Of a DNA stretch of 64,000 bases, positions 4,990 to 63,295 are shown piece by piece. The notes below the pieces were generated by a model. That model worked only from the letters and a program-made list of their open reading frames with translations, had not been told where the DNA came from and searched no databases. The DNA comes from Glaucostegus cemiculus (taxonomy: Eukaryota). How positions within the stretch are numbered: position 1 is the first letter of the stretch; every line of letters begins with the position of its first letter. Made by a program: the position numbers and the translations under genes. Location of the stretch: assembly GCA_976551045.1 (NCBI GenBank), contig CDPCPM010000215.1, positions 3,844,001-3,908,000 of the forward strand, in the 5' to 3' direction.

Positions 4990-6805
4990 ATACCAGTTCA
5001 AAATAGAGTCGAAGCTGGCAGTTGTGGCAGGGCTTACAAGCTATAACGGGCTACAAAACGAAGTCAGGCAGCATAGTCAACAACAGCACACCCCTTCCTG
5101 ATGAGCGTAATGCACTCTATGCAGGTTTTGAACAGAAGGGGATTTGGTTTGTCACCACCCACCCTGACAGCCTCTAATGCAACTGAACCCACAGTCACCG
5201 TCGAGGACGCAAGATCAATTTTCCGGAGAGTGAACCCCAGGAAAGCATCTGGCCCGGGTGGTATCCCTGGCCGAGTCATCAGATATTGTGCTGATCAGCT
5301 GGCGGGGGTGTTTACAGACGTATTTAACCTCTCTCTGCTTCAATCTGAGGTTCCCACCTGTTTTAAAAAGACCACTATCATCCAGTCACCTAAGAAAAAC
5401 AAAGTAACATGCCGTCATGACTACCAGTTGGTGGCTCTGACATCCGCCATCATGAAGTGCTTTGAGAGGCTGGTTAGGGCATGCAATGGCTCCAGTCTCC
5501 CAGGCAACCTCAACCCACTGCAATTCGCCTACCACCGAAACAGGTCTACAGTGGACGCCATCTCCCTGGCCCTACACTCATCTCTGGAGCATCTGGACAG
5601 TAAAGACACCTGCATTAGACTATTGTTTATTGACTACAGCTCTGCCTTCAATACTATAATTCAAAGCAAACTCATCTCCAAACTCCTAAACCTGGAACTC
5701 AACACCTCCCTAGGCATCTGGATCCTTGACTTTTTGACCAACAAGACCGCAATTGGTGACGATAGGCAGCAACATCTCCAGCACAATTATTCTCAGCACT
5801 GGTGCCCCACAAGGCTGCATCATCAGCCCTATATACTCATGACTGCGTGGCCAGATTCTGCTCTAACTCCATCTACAAGTTTGCAGATGATACCACCGTA
5901 GTAGGTCGTATCTCAAATATTGATGAGTCAGAGTACAGGGAGGAGATAAAGAGCTTAGTGACATGATGTCATGACAACAACCTTTCCCTCAATGTCAGCA
6001 GAACAAAAGAGCTGGTCATTGTCCCCAGGAATGTTGGGGGGGGGGGGGAAAGAGTGGTGTACATGCACCTGTCAACATCAATGGTGCTGAAGCACAGAGG
6101 GTTGAGAGCTTCAAGTTCCTGAGAGTGAACATCACCAATAGCTTGTCCTCATCAGACCACATAGAGGCCTTGACCAAGAAAGCTCACCAGCACATCTACT
6201 TCCTCAGGGGTCTAAAGAAATTCAGTATGTTCCCTTTGACACTCGCCAACTTTTATCAATGCACCATAGAAAGCATCCTATCTGGATACATCACAGCTTT
6301 ATATGGCAACTGCTCTGCACAGGACCGTAAGAAACTGCAGAGAATTGTGGACACAGCCCAACACATCACGGAAACCAGCCTCGCCTCCATGGACCCTGTC
6401 TATACCTCTTGCTGTCTTGGTGAAGCAGCCAGCATAATCAAAGACCCCACCCACTGGGTCATTCTCTCTTCTCCCCTCTCCCATCAGGCAGAAGATACAG
6501 GATCCTGAGGGCATATACCACCAGGCTCAAGGACAGTTTTTATCCCACTGTGAAAAGACTATTAAACAGTTCCCTTATATGATGAGATGGACTCTTGACC
6601 TAGCAATCTACCTTGTTATGACCTTGCACCTTATTGTCTACCTGCACTGCACTTTCTCTTTAGCTGTGACACTTTACTCTGTCTTCTGTTATTGTTTTTA
6701 CCCTGTACCAACTCAATGCACTGTGTAATGAATTGCTCTGTACCAACAGTATGCAAGACAAGTTTTGCATTGTACCTCAGGTCAAGTGACAATAATAAAC
6801 CAATG
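4990..6805 (+). mobile_element. Rex1/Babar non-LTR retrotransposon, 5'-truncated, degenerate RT
   Basis: ORF 5101-5901 has NPRKASGPGGIPGRVIRYCADQLAGVFTDVFNLSL, QFAYHRNRSTVDAI and LFIDYSSAFNTI. KFADDTTVVG follows near 5877. ORF 6125-6508 has KKAHQHIYFLRGLKKF..FYQCTIESILS. The tail is gtgacaataataaacc. Confidence 0.9.
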
Positions 6806-22440: not shown

Positions 22441-23255
22441 CTTAAGGATGTCAAAAATTCAATTTAACCAGATAGCTCACCATTTAACTCTGGGCTGTCC
22501 ATTCCCTGAAGTATATGCCCATGCTCACATCCTGGCCTGGGGGCAGGGGACGGAAAATATCGGGGGGGTGGTGGTGAAGCTGTACTTGAGCTCCCATGAC
22601 AAATCTGGACTAACACATCATGGTACTTCCATCAGTAATTTATTAACAACGTTTTGCTGAAAGAATTCTGTATTAGGATTTTACTCTATTCTCCAGACAA
22701 GATTTCATATCACTTTAAGACCCAGTGATCAAGTATACACTGGATGTAACAAAATATACTTCCATACAATGTTCTGTTTTGTGTTCAGATTGCTAATATA
22801 CAAGTTACAGAATCAAAACCAAGTTCTCCTAAAGTAGACAGACTCCTGTCTGCTTGTGTATGCATCCTGGCAGATTCAGTGAAGCCAAGTAGGATTGAAA
22901 TTTATTTCTCAAGGAAAGCAAGCACTAGAATAGTGAAACATTGAGGATACGTGCCAGTTTGTCCCTGGGTTTACACAAGGTTTTTATGCCTGCACCACCC
23001 TCAGTCTTAAGTGAAGCAAATCACAGGCTTCTCTGCCTCGGTGCAGATTATCCACCGGGTAATTTCAGAAGTCTGCTACGGCAGCTGAAATTAATCTGCA
23101 CTAATAAACACCACGGCTGCATCTCTTCAGGGAAATTGATAACTGAATGCAATAAATGCTGAAAGTTATCAAAAGAAATTACAACGGGGACACTGCAGTG
23201 GTCACCCTAGAAGCAGGAATAGGCCCTTTGGCCTCTCATGGTTGCTCCACCATTC

Positions 23256-23500
23256 AACGAGGGAAATAATTGCTTGAGAACTCCAACAACCGCAAGGTGA
23301 CCTCTAAGATGCACATCTTCATGAGTTGTAAATATATTGGGGTTTGTCGCGGATTCTTCCTACACAACCAGAACTCGCCGCAAAGCAGCACTGTAAGAAT
23401 ACCTTTGCCATGAGCACTGCTCTGGGCCAGGAGGTTAGCTGCACAACATCCTTAATAGGAAATGGACACACTCATTAAGTGCTGTCCTGTCAATGATGCC
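23256..23500 (+). repeat. Left arm of a 245-bp inverted repeat
   Basis: Reverse complement of 25678-25922, apparently without indels and above 90% identical by eye. Confidence 0.95.
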
Positions 23501-23764
23501 CACAATTTTTTCCTGTACTGACCCCATAATCCCTCGATTTTCTTCATATTTAAATATCAGGTGGAGAGGGGTGCTGTATGTTTCCAAATCTTGGAGGGTG
23601 ACGTATTAAAAAACAAAGCGGCAATGAGGGGCAGTGGCCAGGGAGGTCGGTGCACACAGAAATACCACTCCCCATACCCATGCACCATTCTGCTGCGTAA
23701 TGACCTCAGACATGTATCCACAATGAAAAATGCACTCCATTCAACAGCTGTGGCAAAACTGCAT

Positions 23765-24850: not shown

Positions 24851-25677
24851 AAGTTGATGTACCTATTTTGGTGCTTGAAGCACTGTCCTACCTATTTGGC
24901 AACTGCAGAAGATGTTTAAGAGTTGCATACAGCTTTGTTTGGAGACTGGTGTCCACTCATTCCAACATTGTGGACAAGTCACTGAGCATGAAAATCTTTT
25001 ACAAACCCTGGGACAAACAGCTTCTTCCCTTCTATCATCAGATTTCTGAACGGTCCGTGAACCCATGAACTCTACCTTATTATTCCACTTTTGCACTATT
25101 TATTTATTTCTGCATTAAGCTGATTGACTTCACTGAATCTGCCAGAATGCATGCGCAGTTCACATCAATGCATGGAACTAAAACAAGTTGTCCATTGTAT
25201 GGCTGGGGATGCAGTTTCCACTGCTCCCAGCATATGACAGCTGCAGTAGAAACTTAGTCAAGTTCATGATGGCTCTGGAACCACTAACCCATCACCAAAT
25301 GGGGCTTTGAGGGTGTCCTGTCCTTCCAATAATTTACGCTCTAGCCAGGCTGATCACTGGCATTACTGATTGTCCCCTAAAGTGGAGCATCAGCAGCTCC
25401 TTCAAGTCTGATCTGCTGTTGTCTCTCAGGACAACAGCATGGTGCTTCATCGCAGCTGTTTCTGTAGTATCCTTGCCGTTGGCCGTTTCCCTGCTGTCAC
25501 TCATTGTGACCACATCAGAGCCCAGTGCTGCTCTTGGCTACTATTCATGCCCCCTACACTGCAATGGTAGTACCATCCACCAACTGTTCTGCAGCCACTG
25601 GGAAGTAGTTGGGTGGACAAAGGAAGCTGGAAAACAGGCACACACAGAAGCACAACTGCGATTGGTTAATAATTGCA

Positions 25678-25922
25678 GGCATCATTGAGAGGACAGCACT
25701 TAATGAGTGTGTCCATTTCCTATTAAAGATGTTGTGCAGCTAATCTCCTGGCCCAGAGCAGCGCTTGTGGCAAAGGAATTCTTACAGTGCTACTTTGTGG
25801 CGAGTTCTGGTTGTGTGGGAAGAATCCGCGACAAACCCCAATATATTTACAACTCATGAAGATGTGCATCTTGGAGGACACCTTGCAGTTGTTGGAGTTC
25901 TCAAGCAATTGTTTCCCTCGTT
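25678..25922 (-). repeat. Right arm of the 245-bp inverted repeat
   Basis: Reverse complement of 23256-23500. Confidence 0.95.
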
Positions 25923-26024
25923 TTGGGGTGGGTATGCTTGAAGAGTCTGGAAGCCTTGATGAATAGCTGCCATCTATTGGTAGGTGGCACACATTGTGGC
26001 CTTATCCTTTTACAGATTCGTGAA

Positions 26025-36394: not shown

Positions 36395-36560
36395 CCATAA
36401 GACATAGGAACAGAATTAGGCCATTTGGCCCATTGAGTCTGCTCCACCATTCAATCATGGCTGATTTATTTTCCCTCCCAACCCCATTCTCATGCCTTCT
36501 CCCTGTAACCTTTGACAATCTTTCTTATCAAGAATTTATCAACCTTCACTTTAAATATCC
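36395..36560 (-). mobile_element. CR1 3' tail
   Basis: accataagacataggaacagaattaggccatttggcccattgagtctgctccaccattcaatcatggctgat. Confidence 0.85.
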
Positions 36561-37099
36561 CCCTTTTACAGCAGGACCTTGCAGTGATTTTAACTTGTGG
36601 ACATCAACAACATTCTGCTGGACAACCTTACTCCAGAAGTGGGCAAGAAGTGACTGACAGTGTGGAAAATTCAGAATTATTTGGTCACATATTCACACTC
36701 AGATTGGAGCAGGGGACAGTTTCTGGATAGAGGGTAAGCAGTTGGGGGGAGGGGTGTGTGTGGGTGGAGTGCCAAATGAGTGGACTTTGGGGAAAGGCCT
36801 AAATTTTCTTCTATTGCTGGAGACTCGCCATCTTCCTTATTGATTGGTCTTTCTAAAGCTTTCTGATATCAGGTAATATAAATAGGACATGCTGGCAACA
36901 AGCGTGGAAACAGAAAGCTAATATTTGTCAGTTTGTCAGAACTGGGCAAGAGAGAAAACAATATTCCCTGCTCAGCGTCCTAACACAAACAAGGGAACAA
37001 TGGGATCCACGTCTACTTAATTAAACACTCCAGTGATCTGGCCTGAAAATGTGGTTGAAAAAAAATCACATGCCAATGATGTCAACTAAATGAAAAAAA

Positions 37100-37541
37100 C
37101 AGTAAAAAAATGTTAGAAAGCAGTTACGGTAGGGGGTAAATGACAGAGAGACCTAGAATTCACCCCTCAGCCTTTAGTGTTTGCAACAGACGAATTGTTC
37201 GTCTGCAACTTGTTGATATGATTTTTTAGCTTGTAAGAATTGTACTTGTATTTGGAAATCCTTTGTAAGTTACAAGTTGTTAAGAGTTACTTATTTGAAT
37301 TAAATGTGTCTCACTGAAAACGAAATAAACTGTGTTTAAACTGCTTCGTAAGCTGGAAGCATCTTCTCCTTGATTGGGAGGTGGGACCCACCGCTCGAAA
37401 TAGTGGATCATTAACAGCTAGACCTTTCCATACAGTATAATCTCTCTATAGTGAGAGGACTCGTAGATCCTTATGCCAGATAGAACTTAAAGCCTTGACT
37501 TAAGTTTAGAGCTCTTGGATGGTACCCTCAATATCATCACA
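37100..37541 (+). promoter_or_regulatory. Putative 5' LTR remnant (R-U5)
   Basis: Ends in CA at 37540-37541, 2 nt before the PBS. It has AATAAA at 37324-37329 and an 8-bp hairpin cagacgaa/ttcgtctg at 37187-37205. The start position is a guess. Confidence 0.55.
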
Positions 37542-37543
37542 GT

Positions 37544-37561
37544 TGGCACCTAAAGTGGTCA
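37544..37561 (+). promoter_or_regulatory. Primer binding site, tRNA-Lys-like (degenerate)
   Basis: TGGCACCTAAAGTGGTCA versus the foamy tRNA-Lys1,2 PBS TGGCGCCCAACGTGGGGC: 12 of the first 15 nt match. It lies about 95 nt before the putative gag ATG. Confidence 0.75.
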
Positions 37562-37655
37562 CGCTTACTTTGAATAAAATAAAATAGAAATAATTATTTA
37601 GCAGTATTCCAACTCAGAGCACTTAAAGTGTTAAGACACATCATCTCGTACTATA

Positions 37656-38475
37656 ATGGCTAATATCCTAGTTCTAGCAGTTGTACAAGCAAATGCTGGT
37701 CAGTATTATGAATATAATATTAGGTCAGCAGAAATATGGGATGATACACCCAATGCTCCTCAAATTGATCATAATGAATATGTTATTTTTCAAGTCAGAG
37801 ACTGGAATGATGATGGAGTAGAACACTGAGTAGGATGTAGACTAGATAGACCGAATCCTGCTTTAATACCTACAGGACTCAGACCATCGCAATTTGTAAC
37901 AGATCTCAATAATGCAGCAATAATTCATGCCTGGAGACAACAAATTGGCCCATTTCAAGCTCAACCCTCGGATCACTCACAGTCACAGCGTCCCCATACC
38001 CCCGCTCCTCATCAGGGATGAGGTAATCAATAACCTAGACAAATGTCTTAGGGAATACCTGCCTCCGGCAGGTACATTCACCCACAAACTAGATGGCTGG
38101 ACATGAGTTATAGACCGAGACCTTTACCCCCAACCCAATTCTTTGAGCAACAAGGCATTAGACCAAGTTAAATTTGGTCTAACTAACACTCTCTGAATGT
38201 TATTTCTGTCTCATTTTGAGACATAAATACCATTCAGAGAGCCTGTTGATATTATGAAGGCAAATACGAAACTGACAAGGCACCGTGGGGTACAGCTCAT
38301 CATTCACAACCATCGGAACATGTAAAAGGACAGGACTCACCCCAAAAATCCATTCCCTTCCCTAGAACACAGGGAAAACAGAATGTAAAGAGGAAAAGCC
38401 AACGTTAATGTGATTGAAACAGAACAGGAGAATTTTAGCCATGACCCTGACCTAAATGCCCCATCTCAGGAATAG
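37656..38475 (+). pseudogene. gag: gag pseudogene, apparently internally deleted
   Basis: ATG at 37656 opens MANILVLAVVQANAGQYYEYNIRSAEIWDD...VIFQVRDWNDDGVEH*VGCRLDRP...RQQIGPF, followed by a P/Q/R-rich region. Two early stops are TGA, consistent with CGA decay. The C-terminus KANVNVIETEQ..SQE* is in another frame. The call rests mainly on position between PBS and protease. Confidence 0.6.
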
Positions 38476-40886
38476 GATGCAGGCATACTTTGTCTTGCCT
38501 TTCCGTATGCCAAAGCCTGTATTTTTGGGAAAATTTAGCCATGACATTTTGACACAGGTGCAGACATCTCAATGCTGAATGAAGATATTATTAGTGGTGA
38601 TGAACTAGATGAGCCAACAGAGACAATTAAAATCGTAGGCATACGTGGAAACGAGGTAGACTGCCCAAATTATAAAGTACTCATACAGATATACAGCATT
38701 TAATGAACAATAGAAGTCACCATAAAGTCTCCACACCAACTTGCCCCAGATCATACAAAACCAGCTCTTCTAATAGGATATCCTGGCATTTCCTATTGGA
38801 TTCGTACCATTATCAAACCAAAAACCGATGATATTGTACCAGATGAACGAGACATTCATATCCAGAAACAGTTAAACTATCAGAGCAAAATTAAAAAACG
38901 TCTTGTACAAATGTTGTGACCACCTGCAACAACACCCCAACCACTGTGGGTTGGTCGATATTGAACCAACTAAATCTGGATGCAATCCATTTCCACATCA
39001 GAAACTGTGGTATATGTTTTCCTCCGTTCAGGCAATCTTTACAAGAGACTGTAGACTCCCTCTGTAAGCAAGGAGTAGTGATAAAAGAACCTTCTCGAAT
39101 TAACTCACCCATGTTTGGTGTAGGAAAACCTGACAGACAGTGGCGATTGGCCATCGACTATATTGACCCAAATAAACACGCAGAGCTTAATTCAGTCCAA
39201 CAGCAGTCATTACAACAAAAGTTGCAAAGATTAACTCATAAAAAATATAAATCTTGCATAGACCTAGCTCATGGCTTTTGGTCACACTGAATTCTTGAAA
39301 ATGACAGCCTTTGCAGCTCCTGATGGTTCACAGTATCAGTGGACCAGACGAGGTTTTTGGATTAGTCCACAAATATTTTCAGTAGGAGTTATTCAGACAC
39401 TACAGGGCATACCAAATATTTGTGCATATGTAGATGATACATACTGCACAGCAGATAGATTGGAAGAGCATTTAACACAAATCAAGACTGTCATTAAGAA
39501 ATTGACGGGCAGAAGCTATGTAATTAACATTAAAATATCTCAACTCTGCCAATCAGAAGTAGATTTCCTCGGCATGTCAATTACAAATGAAGAATGTGGC
39601 TTAACCCCCGAATTTAGACAGAAGGTTGCTCAAGTGGGATATCCAAAGACCCTAAAAGCTTTACAATCAATTATGCTAGAACTTTCATTCCTGACTATGC
39701 CTGTATGACAGATGTGCTCCAAAGAATGAAAACCCTGTTGCCTTTACTCCAGATTATTATGAGACACTAGTAAAATTGATGAACACAGTTCAGTTAGCAA
39801 TAGACCTCCAGACAAGTGACCTCAAAATCTCTTGTTTTACATATCAGTGCTTCTCCTAAATCTGCTATAGCATGGGAGAAGAAATACACTATGCCTCATA
39901 ATTTCACCCCAACAGAACAAAAATTTACCTCTTTAGAGTGATGTCTCACTGTGGTGTTCCAGACACCTTTTGTAGTAAGACCATTTCAGGGAGACGAACC
40001 AATTATCATACAAACAGAATTTATGTCTCTAAAGAAATGATAACATTTGGCATTTGGCTTAATGTGGCACAACATCCTTTAAGACACTACTCTGAAATAT
40101 GGTACTGTGATGGGTCAGCAATGAGAGTCCATGGAAATAAATCTACTAGGTTACAAGCAGGAGCATGGATTGTTAAAGGATACTTTTTATCTGAACCAGA
40201 ATTTGAACCTTATGAATTACAAGCTTATCCTTTAGGGAACCATCCAGTGCAATTGCTGAGACTAAAGCTCTAGAGATATGCTTGAGACAAGTAAATACAA
40301 CTCAACCAGATCTGCACTGACTCTAACCATGTCAGGAATGCAGCAGAAAGAGATCTCCCCATCTGGTTGACTACCAGATGAAGAACACAGAGGAAAGCCA
40401 TTTTCACACTTGTCCACATGGAAAGATATCTGAATTATTTTTGACTTGTCCATTAGTACAGGTGTAGCACATCCTGGGACATACTGCAGGCTGTCTACAC
40501 AGCTATGGTAATAAATTAGTTGATGAACAAGCCAAACAAGCTGTTGGGATGGAACTTACTGCGGTAAGGCAGGCCAGGGTTATGGTAGTAACTAAGCAAC
40601 AAAAAAAAGTAATCAAAACAATGTTTTAAGAATACTCCCAGATACTACTCAACCCAATCCAAAAGGATTTGCACCACAGTACAAGTATGGAACTGACTGT
40701 GAAGGTAAGGTTTGGGGATGCTGCCCTAAAAAAGGTAAACAAATACCTTCTTCTCATAAGCGGGAAGAATTAATTCGAGAAGTCCACCAAGGAGTTGGAT
40801 ACAGTTATGGTGGCGGACAAGCCTCTCATGTGAAATTAGCTATATTATACTGGTGGCCTTGCATGTTGACTGATAGCAAGCAATTT

Positions 40887-41627
40887 CAGAATCAGGATCA
40901 GATTATTGTCACTTTCATGTACACACACCCACACACCCAGCATACATGAAGGTGAGATATCGTACTCCACAGGCCAATGTGCAAAGACATTACAGACAGT
41001 AAAAGACAACAGGACAAAAACATCAAAACATTGGTACATCAACCAGCCCCAGCCTCACCCCGCACCGACGACCACCTCCAGCCCCGCAGTCCTACAAGCT
41101 CCGGGCCCACAGTCCGAACCGATGACCACCTCCGCCCCCGCAGTCCGAGTACCTCCACCCCCGCAGTCCGAACCGATGACCACCTCCGGCCCCACAGTCC
41201 AACTACCTCCGGCCCCGCAGTCCGAACCAATGACCACCTCCGGCCCCGCAGTCCAGGCCCCGCAGTCCGACGGCCGACGACCTCCGGCCCCGCAGTCCGA
41301 CGACCTCCGGCCCCGCAGTCCGACGACCTCGACCTCCCGGCCCCGCAGCCCGACGACCTCCGGCCCCGCAGTCCGACGACCTCGACCTCCCGGCCCCGCA
41401 GCCTGACGACCTCCGGCCTGGGCAGCCCCCTCCCCGCCCGCAGCCTGAAGCCACCACAAGACTCCAGGGCCTTTGACACGCTGGGCTCCAACGAGCTGAC
41501 GGTGCCGTCAGCACAAACAACGAATCCATAGAACGAACATCAAGCACGCAGACATCAAGAACAAAGAATAGAAGAAAAAAAAGAGCACAAAACACTAAAA
41601 GACTAACAAAACACATAAAGCACTACT
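40887..41627 (-). mobile_element. Non-coding Rex1/Babar-tailed retroelement fragment with GC-rich minisatellite, inserted in integrase
   Basis: The minus-strand 3' tail gtgacaataatctgatcctgattctg matches the Rex1 tail at 53750-53785. It is flanked by the TSD GCAATTT (40880-40886 and 41628-41634). Confidence 0.85.
41050..41420. repeat. CpG-rich minisatellite (core cctccggccccgcagtccgacga)
   Basis: About 12 variant units of roughly 21-33 bp; explains the overlapping Pro/Arg/Gly-rich ORFs in the track. Confidence 0.95.
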
Positions 41628-42528
41628 GCAATTTGTTGCAAATTGTAAAGAATGTCTGGCCTATAATAAAGGATCAGTTACAAAACCAAATGCACTATTG
41701 CAGGTGTGGCAAATTGATTAAATAGGCACATTTCTGGCATCCCAAGACAACCCATCTTATCGGAGACCAAATAAATATATTCTTGCCATAGTTGATCTTT
41801 GTACGGGATCTATGTAGTTAGTTCCCACTGCTTCTTGTAGTGATACCGCTACCGTCACCGCACTTCAGAACTCAATAGTCCAGCATGCTGGCACCCCTGC
41901 CTGCTTATATGCAGGCCAAGGGTCTTCCTTCATTGGTAAAGGCTCAGGCCATGTGTGAATCGGCAGGAATACAAGAGGAGTACAGCACTCACACCACCTG
42001 CAATCGGGTGGGGCAGTGGAGAGAAAGAATCAGAAGATTAAGAGGGCCCTGGCAAAACTGGTCTACTCTAGAGGTAAAAGACGGACTACACTTGTCCCTG
42101 AAGTTCAGCTATCTGTGAAAAACATGCTACTGGAAAAAATAGGAGTACATAAGAATCCTACACCTTATTTCTTAATAAATAACGTCCACCTAAATACATC
42201 ACTAATCGCGAAATTAGGCCAACCATCACCTACACCTGATAAAACTCTATTCAAGGAATTCAGAGAGTTTATGGGAACCCAAGAGATACCAAAAGAACCT
42301 GATAAGAAAGTTTGGATGCCACATAAAGGCGATTGGGTTCAAGAAAAGAAATTTCATAAAAACAATTTTGACCCTAGTTTCCATCCTAAATGGAAACCTC
42401 CTTGTCTATTTACCCAGATTATCGATGATAGGACTGTGGTAATCGAGACCGAGAGGGGAAACAAGACCAAGGAGATCTGTCTCCATCAATAATATTAAGT
42501 GTGCCCCAGCAGCATTTGTACACCCAGG

Positions 42529-44470
42529 ATGAGTTGGAACCCTTGTATTAAACATATACACGATTCCACCAATAGAACCCCCACATCTGATCGTAGACAG
42601 ATGAGATGTATTGAACAGATAAGACACATGCTTCAATCCAAAAAGCATAAAAATTCCTTTTCACTTGAAGAAGATCTCATGGATATGTTACCCAGAAATA
42701 GTACACCTAAAAAGCATTGTTGTTTTTCAAGCAAGAAACACCCGAACTCCAGAAAGAAATGTTGCTCTTGCTATACATTTCTTTTAATATTTATGCTTAT
42801 TACAATATTATTCAGTGCTACTTTACTTACCATTTGTTTTTTAACAGGTGAAGTAGCATTTACCACAGAGTTTGCCTCATCTGGCTCAGATACCCTTAAA
42901 CTTAATGATTCATAGAATATTAGATCTAGGAGATCTGTGAGCAATGATGATTCCAACTTAAATGCCACTAGATAGTTCTTATCCTTTGGTCATGTGTGGA
43001 CCAATACACTGGAACCCTTTGGCAAAGTGATTGTCAATATGATCACAAGATGGCTTTCTCCTACACATCTTCTGATTTTCAGAACCCTTTCCACCATCTC
43101 CAAGACAAACGTCAGGAGAACAATTGAAAACACTCCACCTGCTCCAATACTTAAGTGTCAAGAAACACAACACTGTCCAGAACAAAAATCCTGACCAATG
43201 TTTCGTGCACAACCCTGTACGTTCAGCCTCTCCATCAATGGTGCACAGTGATGACAATGTATATTCTTCATAAAATGCACTGTAGTTACTCATCATAGCT
43301 TCTTTGATTGCACCTCCCAAACATCAAACATCTACCACCTAGAGGGCCAAGGGAAGCATTGGAACGCCTCTACTATCAAACACCTCCCAGGTTTCCAATG
43401 CATCAACTTTCCAGTCATTGAGTGGAAATCCTGGAACTCCCTCTGTGGGAATAAGTTCAGTGGCTCAAAAAGGCAGGTTGCTGGCACCATAATCATTCAT
43501 TTAGAAATAAACTATATCTCCTGGCCTTGCAATGGCCAGCAATGGCCACATCTCACAAAAGGAAATAATTCTTGGTTTATGCAAGTTGTTGCCAATTTGA
43601 TGAGGTAGCAGGACATTGCTAGGACCTGTGCAACTATATCACAAATACACTCAAGGAACAGCTCATAATTCCATAAAAGAAACAAAGCAACAACTACATT
43701 TATATGCCCCTTATTACAGCCTTTGGTTATTCCAAGGTATGTTATAACCAACAAAATAGTTCTGGCATGCACTTATGGTAGAACTTTTTACATATATTGT
43801 AAGATTGAACAGAAGTTATTTTCCAGAAACTGGTTGAAGGTTTAATGTCCCCAGTTGAATTCACATGGGAGAGGATCTAGGTTTCAATGAATATCTCATC
43901 TCTAATACTGCAGCATTCCCTTGGTACTGCAATGAAATTTGTGCCTGGACTTTATGCTCAAATCCCTGGAGTGGGGTTTGAATCCTTGGTCTTTTGGCAC
44001 AGAGATGAGAGTATGATTCAGTTGACAGACTGCATGAGTCCCACTGAAAGGTCTGATTACTAGCTACCCAGTGCAGAGGTGATTACAATGACCAATAAAG
44101 GATGAGTAATCAGTCATCACCTTTGATTTTAAATGAGGTCAAACGAAAGGAACTGGAAGAGCTGGTCAGCAGATCCCCATCAAAATCCAATGGTCTAGCC
44201 ACACACAGCCAGAACGTTTTGAATGCAGCCCAACAATGTCACAAGTAGTTATTCAGGGGATTACGATGAGAGCAAAGTCACAGTTATTAACATTTGAAGG
44301 AGAATATATTGGAAAAGATATACATTTAGTCTAGACAACCTTGTCAGTGAAATAATGACATCATAAAACATTCTGCTCCTACCGGCGGGTGGATAGGTCT
44401 GTCTTTTTCTTGTTGAACAATTTATCTCTGTTAAATTGATGAAGCCATGATAGTACTTGATCTGAATCTT
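42529..44470 (+). pseudogene. env: env pseudogene with foamy-type leader peptide, internally deleted
   Basis: ATG at 42529 opens a long hydrophilic N-terminus, then a hydrophobic helix CCSCYTFLLIFMLITILFSATLLTICFL and furin site RSRR/SV (42922-42933). Matches to PFV: EPFGKVIVNMITRWLSPTHLLI to EPHPEPIVVKERVLGLSQILMI; LVIPRYVITN (43723-43752) to LVIPKHIYLN; IQGITMRAKSQLLTFEGEYI to LVGIIAKIK...SSGESI; LMKPMIV to YLKPILI. Confidence 0.8.
43860..44027 (-). mobile_element. SacSINE1/DeuSINE-like fragment inside env
   Basis: tgcagcattcccttggtactgcaatg...gcctggactttatgctcaaatccctggagtggggtttgaatcc...cagagatgagagt, homologous to 21840-21965 and 36080-36190. Confidence 0.7.
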
Positions 44471-50990: not shown

Positions 50991-52715
50991 AAAAAGTACT
51001 GTAAAATAATATTATCTCTCCTCACCTCCCCCAAAAGAATTTCTAGGCCTTATTCTATCATGACTTCAACACTTGTTCATCTATTATAAATAAAGCAGTC
51101 CATTCAAAAACATGCCTGAATTATCTATTCATTGCTGGCCCAGCCATTTCTCTTGCCATCCTCTATCCCAATGATCAGCCTTGGGAAAGGGCTGGAAGCA
51201 CAGGTCCAAGGAGGAATATTGGGATGAGCATACATATTGCACATTGCCCTCAGTGCAACAACGTCAGCTGAAGTATATACTTCTGAGCTGTATCTGAGGG
51301 ACACTTGGCAGGGAAAATAGTGGCTCCTGCAGTTGTACTGTTGGATACAAAAATATAAGCAAGACATTTCTTTGTTCAATGGTTTTGGACTTCAGCTATG
51401 TTTCACTGGAAATCATTGCAGCAAAGACAAATGGGTATTTTTCAGGAGCACTGCTTTAATATTCTAAAGCAAACAGCAGTGAATGACACTGGTGAGAGCA
51501 GTATGGTGGAATTAGTATTTGATTAGTGTTCGACACAAGCACAATTGGCCGAGTGTCTTCCTTCTACCTGCAAACCCACATAGCCTCTCCAAAGGCTGTA
51601 TTTCCCCCTGAAAGGTTAAATTAAATCTCAAACAAAAACTATCGTAACTGCAAAATTAATTAATTGACAAATATACTGATGCCAGTGTTAGGTTTTTGAA
51701 TCTAGAGATATCTCCCTTAATCCTATTTCCCTGCTTCTTTCTCAATACCCTGTTGAATTATAAAAATGGAGCTGCTCTAATCCAGTTAAATCTCGCTAAC
51801 TGAATAATATCTGCAGTAAAGCAAATGTAATATTGTGTGAAAGTCTGTCTGATGCTGGAGATTCCTGAATTAACACTGGTTTAGATTAGCAAGCTTCCAT
51901 CATATTGCAAATAAACCCTAAGGGATAAGAAAAGACTTAAATTATATGGTTACACAAAAATAAGGACTGTGATACAATTCCTTTTAAAATGGTTTAAACA
52001 GTCTTCACAGCATAGCTGCTGGGAATATTTCAGGTGCAAGTCCAGAAATCTGTGCCTTATCAACAAGTTCTTTGATTAATGTGTCGATTTCTTTAATGGA
52101 AAGACATGTTGCTCCATCATCTCCCCAAAATGCACTGAAGAGGCACATGAGGAGGATGGCATCCTGACAATTAAACAGATCTCTGCATGTTGAGACCGGA
52201 GGGGTCAGGTTGGGTACTGGGCCAAGATTATTTTCTGAAAATGCATCCATCTACAACACTGAACTCTTCTTTGAGATCTGAGAGCAAAGGCAAAATGAAA
52301 CAATCATACAATAATACAATGCAGAAAAGAGGCCATTTGACTCGCCTCACTCCTGCTAGTTTGGTGATCCTGTTTGCACTGTTCCTTGTCTTTCTTCTTA
52401 GAACTGCAAATTTTAAACACTTATCCAATTCCTTTTTGGATGTTGATATTAAATCTGCTTTAGGCTGTCCAATGCAGATGGTAAAGCACTGTGTGAACAA
52501 ATGTCATTCCTTGTCTCCATTATGCTTTGTCTGATGATTTTGAGCTGATGCCCTAACAGTGGGTATAGGGTCTCTTCATCCTCAGGTAAAAACAAGAGCT
52601 AAAGTTTTAAGTGGAACTATTTTGTGTCCCAATCATCATCTCTGGTGCTTGCATCCAGGAAGCTTCATAGGATAACTTCCAGTACCAACACTCCTGCCAT
52701 AATCTGTTCAACATG

Positions 52716-53785
52716 TTCACCTTGTTGACTCACGACTGTGAGGCCAGATCCAGCTCCAACCGCATTGTTAAATTTGCCGATGACACGACAGTGGTGGGTC
52801 TTGTCACGAATGATGATGAGTCGGACTACAGAGAGGAGGTGAAACAACTAGCCGTGTGGTGCCATGACAACAACCTCTCCTTGAATGTGGATAAAACTAA
52901 GGAGATGATAGTGGATTTTAGGAGGGGTCACCGTGTGCACGCCCCGCTGACCATCAATGGGTGCTGTGGAACAAGTACGCAGCACCAAGTTCCTGGGGGT
53001 GCACATCACCGACGACCTGACCTGGTCCACTAACATTATGGCCCTCATGAAGAAAGCTCAGAAACGCCTCTACTTCCTGCGGAGACTGAGGAAAACGTAC
53101 CCCCATCCCTCCGTCATGAAAACCTTCTATAGGGGGACCATTGAGAGCATCCTAACTCAATGTATCACTGTTTGGTTTGGAAGCTGCTCAGCTGCTGGGC
53201 AGAAGTCCCTCCAGATGATAGTTAGGGCTGCGGAGTGGATCATAGGTGTCTCGCTTCCATCCCTCGCAGACATATACAAAGACCGTTGTGTGAGGAAGAC
53301 TAAAAGCATAATGGCCGACCCTTCTCACCCCTCCCACCACCTCTTCACAATTTTGCCATCAGGGAGGAGGCTTAAATGTATCAGGGCAAGAACGACCAGG
53401 CTGAACAATAGCTTCTTTCCGCAAGCCATCAGAACATCAAACTCTCTCATCCCTCCATCTTCCTTTGTTAACACTAAGAGATGCTAGGTGCACAGAAATG
53501 CACCAGCACTTTAAATGCCCGACACCAGCCCATTCACTTTAATAACTATTTATTTATTTACCGGCCATTTTTAATTTAATCTGCGTACTAATTTAATTTT
53601 AACTTCCATAGCTTTTAATGTCTAATGTTTTGTAATGTTTATTCTGTCAAGTGTGTATGTGTGTCTCTGTTGGTTGTTATGTTATTTTATGGGACGAGCA
53701 CCTGAGGAGGACGGTATCTCGCTCCTATGCATACTATGTATATATATGGTTGTGACAATAAAAACTGATTTTGATTCTGATTCTG
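52716..53785 (+). mobile_element. Rex1/Babar retrotransposon, 5'-truncated, fairly young
   Basis: FTLLTHDC..IVKFADDTTVVGL, NLSLNVDKTKEMIVDFR, KFLGVHI, KKAQKRLYFLRRL and RTTRLNNSFFPQAIR, with one frameshift. Tail gtgacaataaaactgattttgattctgattctg. Probable TSD AACATG at 52710-52715 and 53786-53791. Confidence 0.92.
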
Positions 53786-55230: not shown

Positions 55231-56489
55231 CGTGTCCCTTTGAAAGCCTTAAATACATCTTAATGTCAATACAAGGGTGAGGAATATTTGTTTTTCTCAT
55301 CACTTGTTTACTTTTGTTTGTTCTTACTGCCTTGTGTGGGTGCAGAGGACAAGTGGGCTCCACAGTAATACAATATACCCATATTGCGATCATTGCTAAA
55401 TCTTTTCTGACTTTTTAAGGCAAGATATTCCAGAAAGTTCCGAAATCACACTGGCCTGTGGGACCCACTGCTGTGAAATACTGCCCAACTGGAGATCATT
55501 TCAGCAAGAACTAACGTGCCCACTTATCCTTCACTCTCTTGTGGAGATGCAGTGATCAAGGCATAGTCAAGAATCAAGTCAACAAGAGTGCCAATCATTA
55601 CCAAGCCAAGGTTATTTTTGGAAAACAGGAAGAATATTGATTTTCATCAAATGTCAGGATTCAATAGTACACAATGGTGTCCAGGGTGGCTTAAAGCAGA
55701 TAAGCGTTTCTCAACCCCTCTACACCTATGAGATATGTCTCTTCTGGTTAGTGCTATTTCATTAGTAGTAATCCCCAACAGCTGAACTATGCGACATACT
55801 GCAATTCCATCAGCCAACTTGACATGTGTGACAGTTAGGTGACATATCATTTCATTAAAATATAAAGCAGCTCCTAAAAAGTATGATTTCCCCCCACATA
55901 CAGACACCTGAGGCCTTTTAAGAAGCAGATTATCTTGTTCTGTCTCATCAGGCCTGTTTTCTATTGCTGGATTATATATTACAGAAGGGAAGGTAGATTC
56001 AGCAGCTGTTGTGACAGTGTGAAAAATAATCAATGCGTCCTGGGGCTGGTATACAGCAAAACTTTTTCCAGGAAAAGGAATTAAAGTGAACAATGGGACA
56101 AGTTTTGCCCAAAATGTTGCAGTTAGGTAAGAGCTGATAATGGAGCACAAGTGTAACAGTGGCCTGCAGCATCAGTGACCCATGAGACAAAGAGTCGTTC
56201 TCCATAATATTTAGGGATCAAGGAATAGTGAAAGGGTTGAATTGAGGAGTGAAGGCAAAGTCAGATTCAGTCAGATCAGACATAGACATAGGGATTAAAA
56301 GAAGGGAGGTCAAGATGAAACAGGAAAAAGTGATAAAAAATATGCTTAACATTTACAATCTTCTGACATGATGGTTGCAAGGGTAGCTGTTTGATAATTG
56401 TTAACAATTGTGAAGTTATTGAAATGTACCCATTGCAGTGAATATAAGAACTTAAAAAATAGGAACAAGATTAGGCTATTCAGCCTACA

Positions 56490-58010
56490 GTAATAGAGCA
56501 AGACAGTACAGATACAGGCCCTTCAGCCCAACCAGTCCATGCTGACCATGTTATCCACCTAGTTAGTCCCAATTTCCTGCACTCAGCACATATCCCTCCA
56601 GGTCCCTCTCCTCCATGTACATACCCAAGTACTTCTTCAATGATACTATTGTACCTGCCTCAACCACTTCCTCTGGCAGCTTGTTCCATTTACTCACCAC
56701 CCTCTGCGTAAAAAAGTTGCCCCTCAGGTCTTTTTAAATCTTTTTCTTCTCACTCTAAATCTATGATCCTAATTTTGGACTCCTGTATCTTGGGGAAAAA
56801 TTTGTTACCATCCACCTTATCTCTGCCTCTCATAACTTTAAACACTTCAATAAACTTGTCACTTGTTCTGCTACATTCCAAGGAATAAAGACTTAGCCTG
56901 GCCAACCTCTCCCTATAACTTAGGCCCTCTAGTCCTGGCAACATCCTCATATATCTTTTCTACACTCTTTCCAGTTCAACCACATCTTTCCTATAACAAG
57001 GTGACCAAAGCAGTACACAGAACACTAAGTGTGGCCTCACCAATGACTGATAAAACTGCATCATAATGTCGCAACTCCTATACACAGTGCCCTGACTAAT
57101 AAAGGCCAGAATGCTAAATGCCCTCTTCACCACCCTGTCGACATGTAACACTGCTTTCAATGAGCCATATACTTGTACTCCAAGGTCCCTCTGTTTCATT
57201 ACACACCTGGTGCCCTACCATTCATAGTATAAGTCCTGCGCTGGTTTGACTTTCCAAAATGCATCACCTCAACTTACCTGTATTGAAATCCATGTGCCAC
57301 TGCTTGGCCCACTTCCCTAACTAATCAAGTTCCACTTTTATCTACGATAACCTTCTTCACTTTCAACAACACCTCCTAACCTTCTAATGTCATGTCACCT
57401 GAAAACCTGTTGATCGAGTCTTGTGCATTCGCATCCAAATCATTTATATAAATAATGACTAACAAGGGTCCCAACACCGACCCCTGTGGTGCGTCACTAG
57501 TCACCAGTCTCCATTCCAAGAAACAACCTTCAACCACCACTCTCTGCTCCCTACATCTGAGCCAATTTTGAATCCACATAACTAGCTCTCCCTGGATTCC
57601 ATGGGACCTAAATTTCCAGACCAGCCTGCCATGTGGGACCTCATTGAACCCCTTGCTAAGGTCCAAATAGACAACATCCACTTCCCTACCCTCATCCACT
57701 ATTTTAGTTACCTTTTCAAAGAACTCTAAAAGATTTGTCAAACATGACTTCATACGCACAAAGCCATGCTGACTCCTCCTTATCAGACTCTGTCTATCCA
57801 AATGTTGGTAGATCCTGTCCCTCAGAATTCACTCCAGTAATTTCCCCACCACTGATGTCAGGCTGACTGGCCTGTAGTTCCCCGGCTTTTCCTTGCTACC
57901 CTTCTTAAACAATGGAATGACATCTGCCACCATCCGGAGCTTCACCAGTGGCTAACTATGAAGCAAATATCTCCACAAGAGCCTTGGCAATTTCTTTTCT
58001 AGCCTCCCAC
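56490..58010 (-). mobile_element. CR1 LINE, 5'-truncated, degenerate RT
   Basis: SQHGFVRMKSCLTNLLEFF, VDVVYLDLSKGFNEVPHGRL, PQGSVLGPLL, QRDLGVQV and LVRPHLVFCVLLWSP, plus a 3' tail at about 56500. Confidence 0.92.
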
Positions 58011-62593: not shown

Positions 62594-63295
62594 GAACATA
62601 GTATAGCACAGCACAGTACAAGACCTTCGGTCCACAATGTTATGCTGACATTTTATCTTGCTCTAAGATCTATCTAACCCTTCCCTCCCACATAGCCCCT
62701 TATTTTTTCTATCATTCATGTGTCTAAGAGTCTCTTAAATGTCCCTAATGTATCTGACCCCACAACCTCTGCCGGCAGTGTGTTCGACGCACCCACCACT
62801 CTCTGTGTAAGAAACTTATCCCTGACATCCCCCTTATACCTTCCTCCAATCACCTTATGGTTATCTCCCCTCATGTTAGCCATTATTGCCCTGGGAAAAA
62901 GTCTCTGACTGTCCACTTGATTTATGCCTCTTATCATCTTGCACACCTCTATCAAGTCACCTCTCATCCTCCTTCTCTCCAAAGAGAAAAGCCCTAGATC
63001 ACTCAACCTATCCTCATAAGACATGCTCTCCAATCCAGGCAGCATCTTGGTAAATCTCCTCGGCACCCTCTCTAAAGCTTCCACATCCGTCCTATCATGA
63101 GGTGACCAAAACTGAACACAATACTCCAAGAGTGGTGTGACCAGAGTTCTATAGAGCTGCAACATCACCTCGCGGCTCCTGAACTCAATACCCTGACTAT
63201 TGAAGGCCAACACTCCATATACCTTCTTAACAACCCTCTCGACCTGTGAGGCAACCTTGAGGGATCTATGGACATAGACCCCAAGATCCCTCTGT
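62594..63295 (-). mobile_element. CR1 3' fragment with a 165-aa open ORF2 C-terminus
   Basis: LYRTLVTPLLEYCVQFWSP, LERVPRRFTKMLPGL, LGLFSLERRRMRGDLIEV and FLTQRVV. Confidence 0.92.

Follow-up and report, generated by a model that had tools for sequence, protein, structure and literature searches.

An old endogenous foamy virus family in Glaucostegus cemiculus and a probable burst of env-less copies from a spliced genome

A defining oddity of foamy viruses is the independent expression of Pol, which in the living viruses is reported to come from a separate spliced mRNA, and late reverse transcription and Env-dependent budding are further traits of the group (PMC3185757). Endogenous relatives have been described from sharks, among them CmiFLERV (PMC5512871) and ERV-Spuma.0-Sca (PMC10699275), and an endogenous foamy virus (EFV) of cartilaginous fish, basal to those of other vertebrates according to the title of the report, was published by Wang, Chen and Cui in 2023 (PMC9972966). 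Proviruses formed from a spliced genome are also on record, as the delta-HFV provirus is reported to derive from genome RNA from which a 301-nt intron had been spliced out (PMC1224871; PMC12945018), and mouse Mtv proviruses without the rem intron are described by authors who call spliced insertions rare (PMC11998498). Here we analyze a provirus in a stretch of 64,000 nucleotides from Glaucostegus cemiculus (assembly GCA_976551045.1, contig CDPCPM010000215.1, positions 3,844,001 to 3,908,000 of the forward strand), referred to throughout as the window. This provirus is dead and doubly truncated. It belongs to an old, multi-copy family of endogenous foamy viruses, and a group of its sister loci likely descends from a burst of copies that had lost most of env by splicing. 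Since earlier publications cover foamy viruses endogenous to cartilaginous fish, the element does not in itself represent a new kind, and the two shark elements named above make it doubtful that this is an undescribed deep-branching elasmobranch lineage, as a first-pass annotation made from the letters alone had supposed. The 2023 study, which reportedly covers sharks and rays, probably dealt with the same kind of element, judging by its title. The burst of copies with a spliced env and the gag-TAG-pol layout of the sister copies may be new features.

The first-pass annotation had placed the element in Spumaretrovirinae in preference to gamma/epsilon endogenous retroviruses (ERVs) or Ty3/Gypsy, and comparisons of Pol agree with that call. 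Against known structures, the reverse transcriptase (RT) fragment at 39268-39705 matched foamy virus Pol with E values of 3e-26 to 2e-25, versus 1e-7 for Ty3 and 2e-3 for murine leukaemia virus, a likeness that chance cannot explain, and all eight significant matches of the integrase fragment were foamy integrase chains. An HMMER search with RT among 1.84 billion representative proteins returned feline foamy virus Pol as the best match (45% identity), followed by a Scyliorhinus torazame gene model (P0002, 40%) and a Logan protein of 1687 amino acids (P0003, 38%), while the RT fragment had no match in a word-based protein search or in a scan of viral contigs. No RNA data set carrying the element was listed, which has no bearing on its expression. 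A frameshift-aware alignment covered residues 19-1129 of feline foamy virus Pol at 34% identity over 1005 positions, and relative to this protein the window pol is broken by seven stops and about 18 frameshifts and bears a single large insertion. In a careful RT tree of 27 rows, from which six of the 12 aligned family copies were left out, the window and its sisters fell inside the spuma clade (support 100/100), which quick RT trees also recover, and did not group with Ty3/Gypsy or Orthoretrovirinae; the approximately unbiased (AU) test rejected a grouping of the copies with seven non-spuma retroviral rows (p-AU 0.0002). The six family copies formed a clade of their own (100/100), to which P0003 and P0002 attached at 90/88 and the mammalian foamy viruses only at 80/66, a provisional placement within the spuma clade because the reference set held no published EFV, foamy-like ERV (FLERV) or named lokiretrovirus sequences. 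In P0002 the foamy-like RT is linked to a PR/SET domain within a single prediction, which probably reflects an artefact of the gene model. Judged from these sequence comparisons, the assignment of the element to the foamy viruses rather than to Gypsy or the orthoretroviruses is supported.

To place the window copy within its family, the 2.85-Gb assembly was searched with RT (150 of 7460 candidates scored); the best pieces of 12 other loci were 56-77% identical, and those of the remaining loci 24-34%. This paralogue search yielded 24 sister loci, which were fetched and mapped and from which the anatomy of the family was read. Sister long terminal repeats (LTRs) measure about 780-830 nt with TG...CA ends, and a search with the LTR gave 693 candidates, of which 40 were scored and three fetched, all three looking like solo LTRs. 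Target duplications are of 4 bp, being exact at four of the ten assessable loci, matching at three of four bases at another four, and absent at two. The primer-binding site (PBS) of the family resembles the Lys-type PBS quoted for a stork EFV (PMC6955096). The foamy Gag central domain (PF20672) scored above its cut-off in four of six matches, all in sister loci, the domain being deleted in the window, and a sister Gag fragment had no match in the PDB. Foamy Env (PF03408) reached 37 bits against a cut-off of 27 in sister C74, in which the env stretch also matched a foamy Env structure chain (E 0.003), and stayed below the cut-off in C132. The leading 6 kb of each of 25 stretches held no Cys-His box of the form CX2CX4HX4C, which is weak evidence given the decay of the copies. 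Every copy with aligned pol carries stops and frameshifts; purine runs recur in the integrase of seven copies, none of them repeating the 3' polypurine tract (PPT) as a central PPT would. Two copies, C377 and C5, are near-identical (dN = dS = 0.064), probably through segmental duplication of the host rather than separate integration.

Compared with C60, an identical ~1.87 kb of env is missing from seven loci (C137, C19, C46, C33, C248, C281 and C201), and a search with the junction as query returned these seven together with one unspliced half-match. In the unspliced copies that keep the left end of this segment, its opening bases are GT in three of six (GTAAGA in two), AT in two and GG in one; where the right end is kept, the segment closes with a T-rich tract and TAG in three of four copies and with TGG in the fourth. 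The candidate donor lies in the surface subunit (SU), whereas the candidate acceptor falls within codons for the membrane anchor of Env. The join preserves the env frame in 7/7, the frame ending a few codons downstream. By simple consensus scores, a random deletion would have GT..AG ends with a chance of 0.8% and equally good sites with a chance of 0.03%, the GTAAGA donors rank in the top one or two of 44-64 GT sites in two copies, and none of 17 other deletion junctions has GT..AG ends. Deletions running from LTR to pol, from LTR to env, within gag and in the accessory region were also considered as splices and rejected for want of such ends. A DNA tree of 22 of the 25 rows (C27 and C147 were removed by a length filter, and C201 was dropped) contained a star-like clade of ten rows, supported at 100/100, that includes the window. 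All six members of this burst clade that could be assessed at the junction are spliced, versus none of the nine copies outside it that keep intron-side sequence; the window, C226, C169a and C363 belong to the clade and do not cover the junction. The 3' flanks are unrelated in all 28 pairs among eight burst-clade loci, which are therefore separate integrations. We consider it likely that these sister loci represent an env-less burst derived by splicing.

A second departure from the living viruses concerns the end of gag. A p3-like Gag tail, whose cleavage motif we take to be that of foamy viruses, runs in frame over the upstream 72 nt to one codon in seven of nine copies. That codon is TAG in four of the nine (the window, C7, C19 and C10), which come from three branches of the tree, GAG in two, and CAG, AAG or AAC in the remaining three (one copy each). 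The protease continues in this frame, no methionine precedes its active site in any of the seven copies read, and in C7 the stretch leading up to the TAG is rich in purines. In P0003, a foamy-like Pol has ~520 amino acids fused in frame to its protease with no intervening stop; this could be a Gag-Pol fusion of a basal spuma-like element. We regard it as somewhat probable from these features that Pol was made by readthrough of the gag TAG, and the evidence leans away from a pol ATG or a separate pol mRNA. Weighing against readthrough, five of the nine copies are without TAG, a number exceeding what decay by itself would produce, the reading frame is not traceable from the Gag core as far as the TAG, with distances mixed modulo 3, and the hairpin behind the codon is inconsistent among seven copies. 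These same points favour the alternative that Pol came from its own spliced mRNA, the TAG being a mere gag stop or TAG/G a splice acceptor; the missing methionine, the recurrence of TAG on three branches, the in-frame p3-like tail, the purine-rich stretch and the sequence upstream of the P0003 protease speak against it, and it retains an appreciable though minority share of the probability. Should readthrough be correct, a basal member with gag, stop and pol in one frame would make the timing of independent Pol expression testable across fish, amphibian and reptile fossils.

Several observations weigh against a splice as the source of the env deletion. The window copy ends before the junction, such that we infer its own env state rather than see it, the donor GT survives in just three of six copies, and the acceptor tract is modest, with 23-59 other AG sites per copy scoring equally well. 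A 2-nt microhomology is possible because AG is common to both ends, and because two other shared deletions of the family arose at microhomologies, the shared deletions here need not be splices. The test was also post hoc, so that over 18 junctions the chance rises to ~14% for bare GT..AG ends and 0.6% with site scores, several control junctions are poorly resolved, and the bootstrap of the DNA tree is not fully settled. A clade restricted to the six spliced rows fails the AU test (p=0.04), since the four copies that do not cover the junction are interspersed with them, as expected if those four share the burst. An improbable alternative is that the same foamy family lost this part of env, before amplification, by template switching or host deletion at the 2-nt AG microhomology. 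The microhomologies at the other two deletions, the survival of the donor GT in only half of the copies and the unexceptional acceptor argue for it, while the high rank of the GTAAGA donors, the env frame kept at every join and the failure of any of the 17 other junctions to look alike argue against it. The two deletions at microhomologies affect env and the accessory region, the latter losing ~765 nt; C132, C14b, C14a and C7 share them, and we read them as a second amplified defective lineage. That the element is instead a Gypsy element, a lokiretrovirus or a class I/III orthoretrovirus is very improbable and largely refuted, as the modest identity to feline foamy virus Pol, the lack of a Spuma_A9PTase match in the window protease, the lack of any Foamy_BEL (PF03274) match in the genome in a search run with no positive control, and the absence of a named lokiretrovirus from the tree are set against the Pol matches, the RT tree with its AU test, and the sister Gag and Env domains and Env structure match described above.

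We propose, with fairly high confidence, that reverse transcription of a spliced genome set off a burst of copies within an old foamy ERV family. Several viral lineages would have entered the germ line under purifying selection, and in one of them a genome-length RNA would have been spliced inside env, from the SU donor to the membrane-anchor acceptor, keeping its LTR ends, PBS, gag and pol. Reverse transcription and integration of this RNA would then have produced a burst of near-identical, independently integrated copies that later decayed, the window copy, a member of the burst clade by sequence, presumably among them in its spliced env state. The spliced genome would have been unable to make a fusogenic Env, and because foamy particle release is described as strictly Env-dependent (PMC3185757), spread would have proceeded by intracellular reintegration or with the Env of a helper virus, two routes that our data do not separate. 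Reintegration in producer cells has been seen in vitro (PMC3185757), with the caution from a review that such retrotransposition may be peculiar to prototype foamy virus (PMC3814592). If the proposal holds, a spliced env-less germ-line burst would supply evidence from nature for spread by reintegration or with a helper, which has been known from cell culture only.

Selection and age were estimated from the copies themselves. For pol, 36 pairs drawn from different lineages gave a dN/dS of 0.37, while 15 pairs inside the burst clade gave 0.74, with values from 0.58 to 1.3. Eleven LTR pairs gave Kimura two-parameter distances of 0.08-0.27 with a median of 0.14, which at a mammalian rate of 2.2e-9 corresponds to a median age of ~32 Myr. 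At the catshark rate of 0.5e-9 assumed elsewhere (PMC10699275), the median is ~140 Myr. An old insertion is also supported by public contigs, which show it in two other organisms: in organism C a contig spans 42935-46064, across the 3' junction, with 196 differences, and in organism D contigs span both junctions (36543-37010 and 42860-43500). Because these contigs cross the junctions, the insertion and its truncation predate splits of ~6-9% divergence, and a locus common to several organisms offers a calibration point for dating. In organism B, the flank and internal pieces are covered and no junction is bridged by the contigs listed.

Between env and the 3' LTR, the sister copies carry a hydrophobic open reading frame (ORF) with several predicted membrane segments, for example at L011:7207-7674 (C137) and L067:4630-5187 (C29), which is unusual for a foamy accessory gene. 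In its N-terminal part, mismatches by codon position are 0.24/0.20/0.29, compared with 0.20/0.18/0.30 for an RT control, while its C-terminal part is flat at 0.21 and an env-leader control is nearly flat; by this substitution pattern, the ORF appears partly coding-like. It had no match of note in Pfam, NCBIfam or the PDB, and none to PF03274, the check for Tas/Bet, in a search run with no positive control. A TATA-like motif that could mark an internal promoter occurs in one of three copies. Inside the ORF of C137, a private 1.1-kb insertion (L011:7674-8775) resembles what we take to be a fragment of a Tigger/pogo transposon. Tentatively, the family may descend from a deep-branching foamy virus that made Pol by gag stop-codon readthrough, the separate spliced pol message being a later invention, that had an accessory protein crossing the membrane several times in place of Tas/Bet, and whose spliced env-less genome was the main germ-line amplifier. 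On this reading, the fossil copies preserve the splice map of a virus that died out tens to more than a hundred million years ago.

The provirus in the window occupies 36956-43034, with all motifs on the plus strand (Table 1), rather than the 37100-44470 first proposed, likeness to the sister copies stopping at 43019-43034. The individual motifs read at the outset are nonetheless where they were placed, including the LTR end CA (37540-37541), PBS (37544), gag ATG (37656), protease DTGAD (38551), KKYKSCIDLAHGFWSH (39240), YVDD (39427-39438), RNase H DGS (within 40103-40117), PLGNHPVQ (40229), PKGFAPQY (40659), VERKNQKIKR (42016) and the Env leader with RSRR (42922), a furin-like site at the boundary of leader peptide (LP) and SU having been described for foamy viruses (PMC11468914). 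Two broader claims survive in part: the integrase is present as a remnant, although its zinc-finger region is split by one ~750-nt repeat and the position of the second catalytic aspartate reads otherwise, and a PBS-gag-pol-env order spanning all three genes holds for the family and not for this truncated locus. A search of the window and of the 30 kb that follow it revealed no SU-TM region (surface and transmembrane subunits), accessory region or 3' LTR.

Table 1. Parts of the provirus and adjoining DNA, in window positions
Feature	Positions	Strand	Remarks
5' LTR remnant	36956..37541	+	first ~175 nt missing
Primer-binding site, tRNA-Lys type of foamy viruses	37544..37561	+	2 nt after LTR; PBS quoted in PMC6955096
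gag remnant	37656..38475	+	875-nt deletion at 37955 takes out central domain
~40-nt stretch within gag	38167..38210	+	missing from related copies
gag 3' end	38473-38475	+	p3-like tail, then TAG
Protease	38476..38950	+	in frame with gag stop; DTG at 38551; no ATG from stop to active site
Reverse transcriptase and connection	38951..40096	+	YVDD 39427-39438; ~150 nt deleted at 40045
RNase H remnant	40097..40557	+
Integrase remnant, broken by repeat insertion	40558..42529	+
Later non-viral insertion, ~750-nt dispersed repeat with GC-rich tandem core	40880..41630	.	4029 candidates in genome, 40 scored
env leader peptide and first SU residues; provirus end	42530..43034	+	hydrophobic segment; RSRR site 42922
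Non-proviral host DNA	43035..44470	.	decayed dispersed repeat at 43063-43380

The segment beyond the provirus end was considered as env SU and rejected, as no sister copy matches it and six-frame translation gave no env or other relevant Pfam match; its repeat at 43063-43380, which matches elsewhere in the genome and is unrelated to the provirus, is presumably LINE-like. The repeat inside integrase has 4029 candidate places in the genome (40 scored), pointing to thousands of candidate copies, with core units of 23-54 nt, and the GC-rich core has no depth in organisms B, C and D. Elsewhere in the window, inverted repeats of 264 nt at 23247-23510 and 25668-25931, 92% complementary and 2157 nt apart, likely mark a DNA transposon or fold-back element, and a stop-free frame of 174 amino acids on the minus strand (55647-56171) had no Pfam or Atlas match and may be a chance ORF. 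What we take to be LINE-like RT fragments lie at 5077-6508, 52714-53781, 57376-57828 and 62716-63294, the second of which is 94% identical to an insertion inside env of sister C46, and the repeats of the window seem akin to LINEs of sharks and rays.

In the literature searched, at the level of titles and the openings of abstracts, no report of readthrough or spliced env in foamy ERVs was found, although the supplements of PMC9972966, PMC5512871 and PMC10699275 may hold one; the consulted parts of PMC5210030, PMC3386198, PMC12789967 and bioRxiv 2020.12.18.423569 make no mention of either. With the mammalian foamy viruses (prototype, feline and bovine; PFV, FFV and BFV), which give its best Pol matches, the family shares the Gag central domain, a long Env leader with a furin-like site, a Lys-type PBS, the lack of a detected Cys-His box, a p3-like Gag tail and an apparently coding stretch that separates env from the 3' LTR. 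It differs from them in a Pol only 34% identical, in a pol that seems to follow the gag stop in frame and to lack an ATG of its own, and in a hydrophobic post-env ORF that has no Tas/Bet match, with no clear internal promoter or central PPT found. The Scyliorhinus torazame protein shares the spuma clade and groups with the family, yet is only 40% identical in RT. Endogenous mouse mammary tumour virus (MMTV) lacking the rem intron resembles the spliced copies in being endogenous and in missing, in frame, an env segment that corresponds to an intron, but is a recent betaretrovirus with a known rem product, whereas the intron of the family is known from fossils alone. The delta-HFV, or delta-tas, provirus likewise arose from a genome-length RNA minus one intron; it lost 301 nt of tas in somatic infection, whereas the spliced copies here lack ~1.87 kb of env and became fixed in the germ line at no fewer than seven loci.

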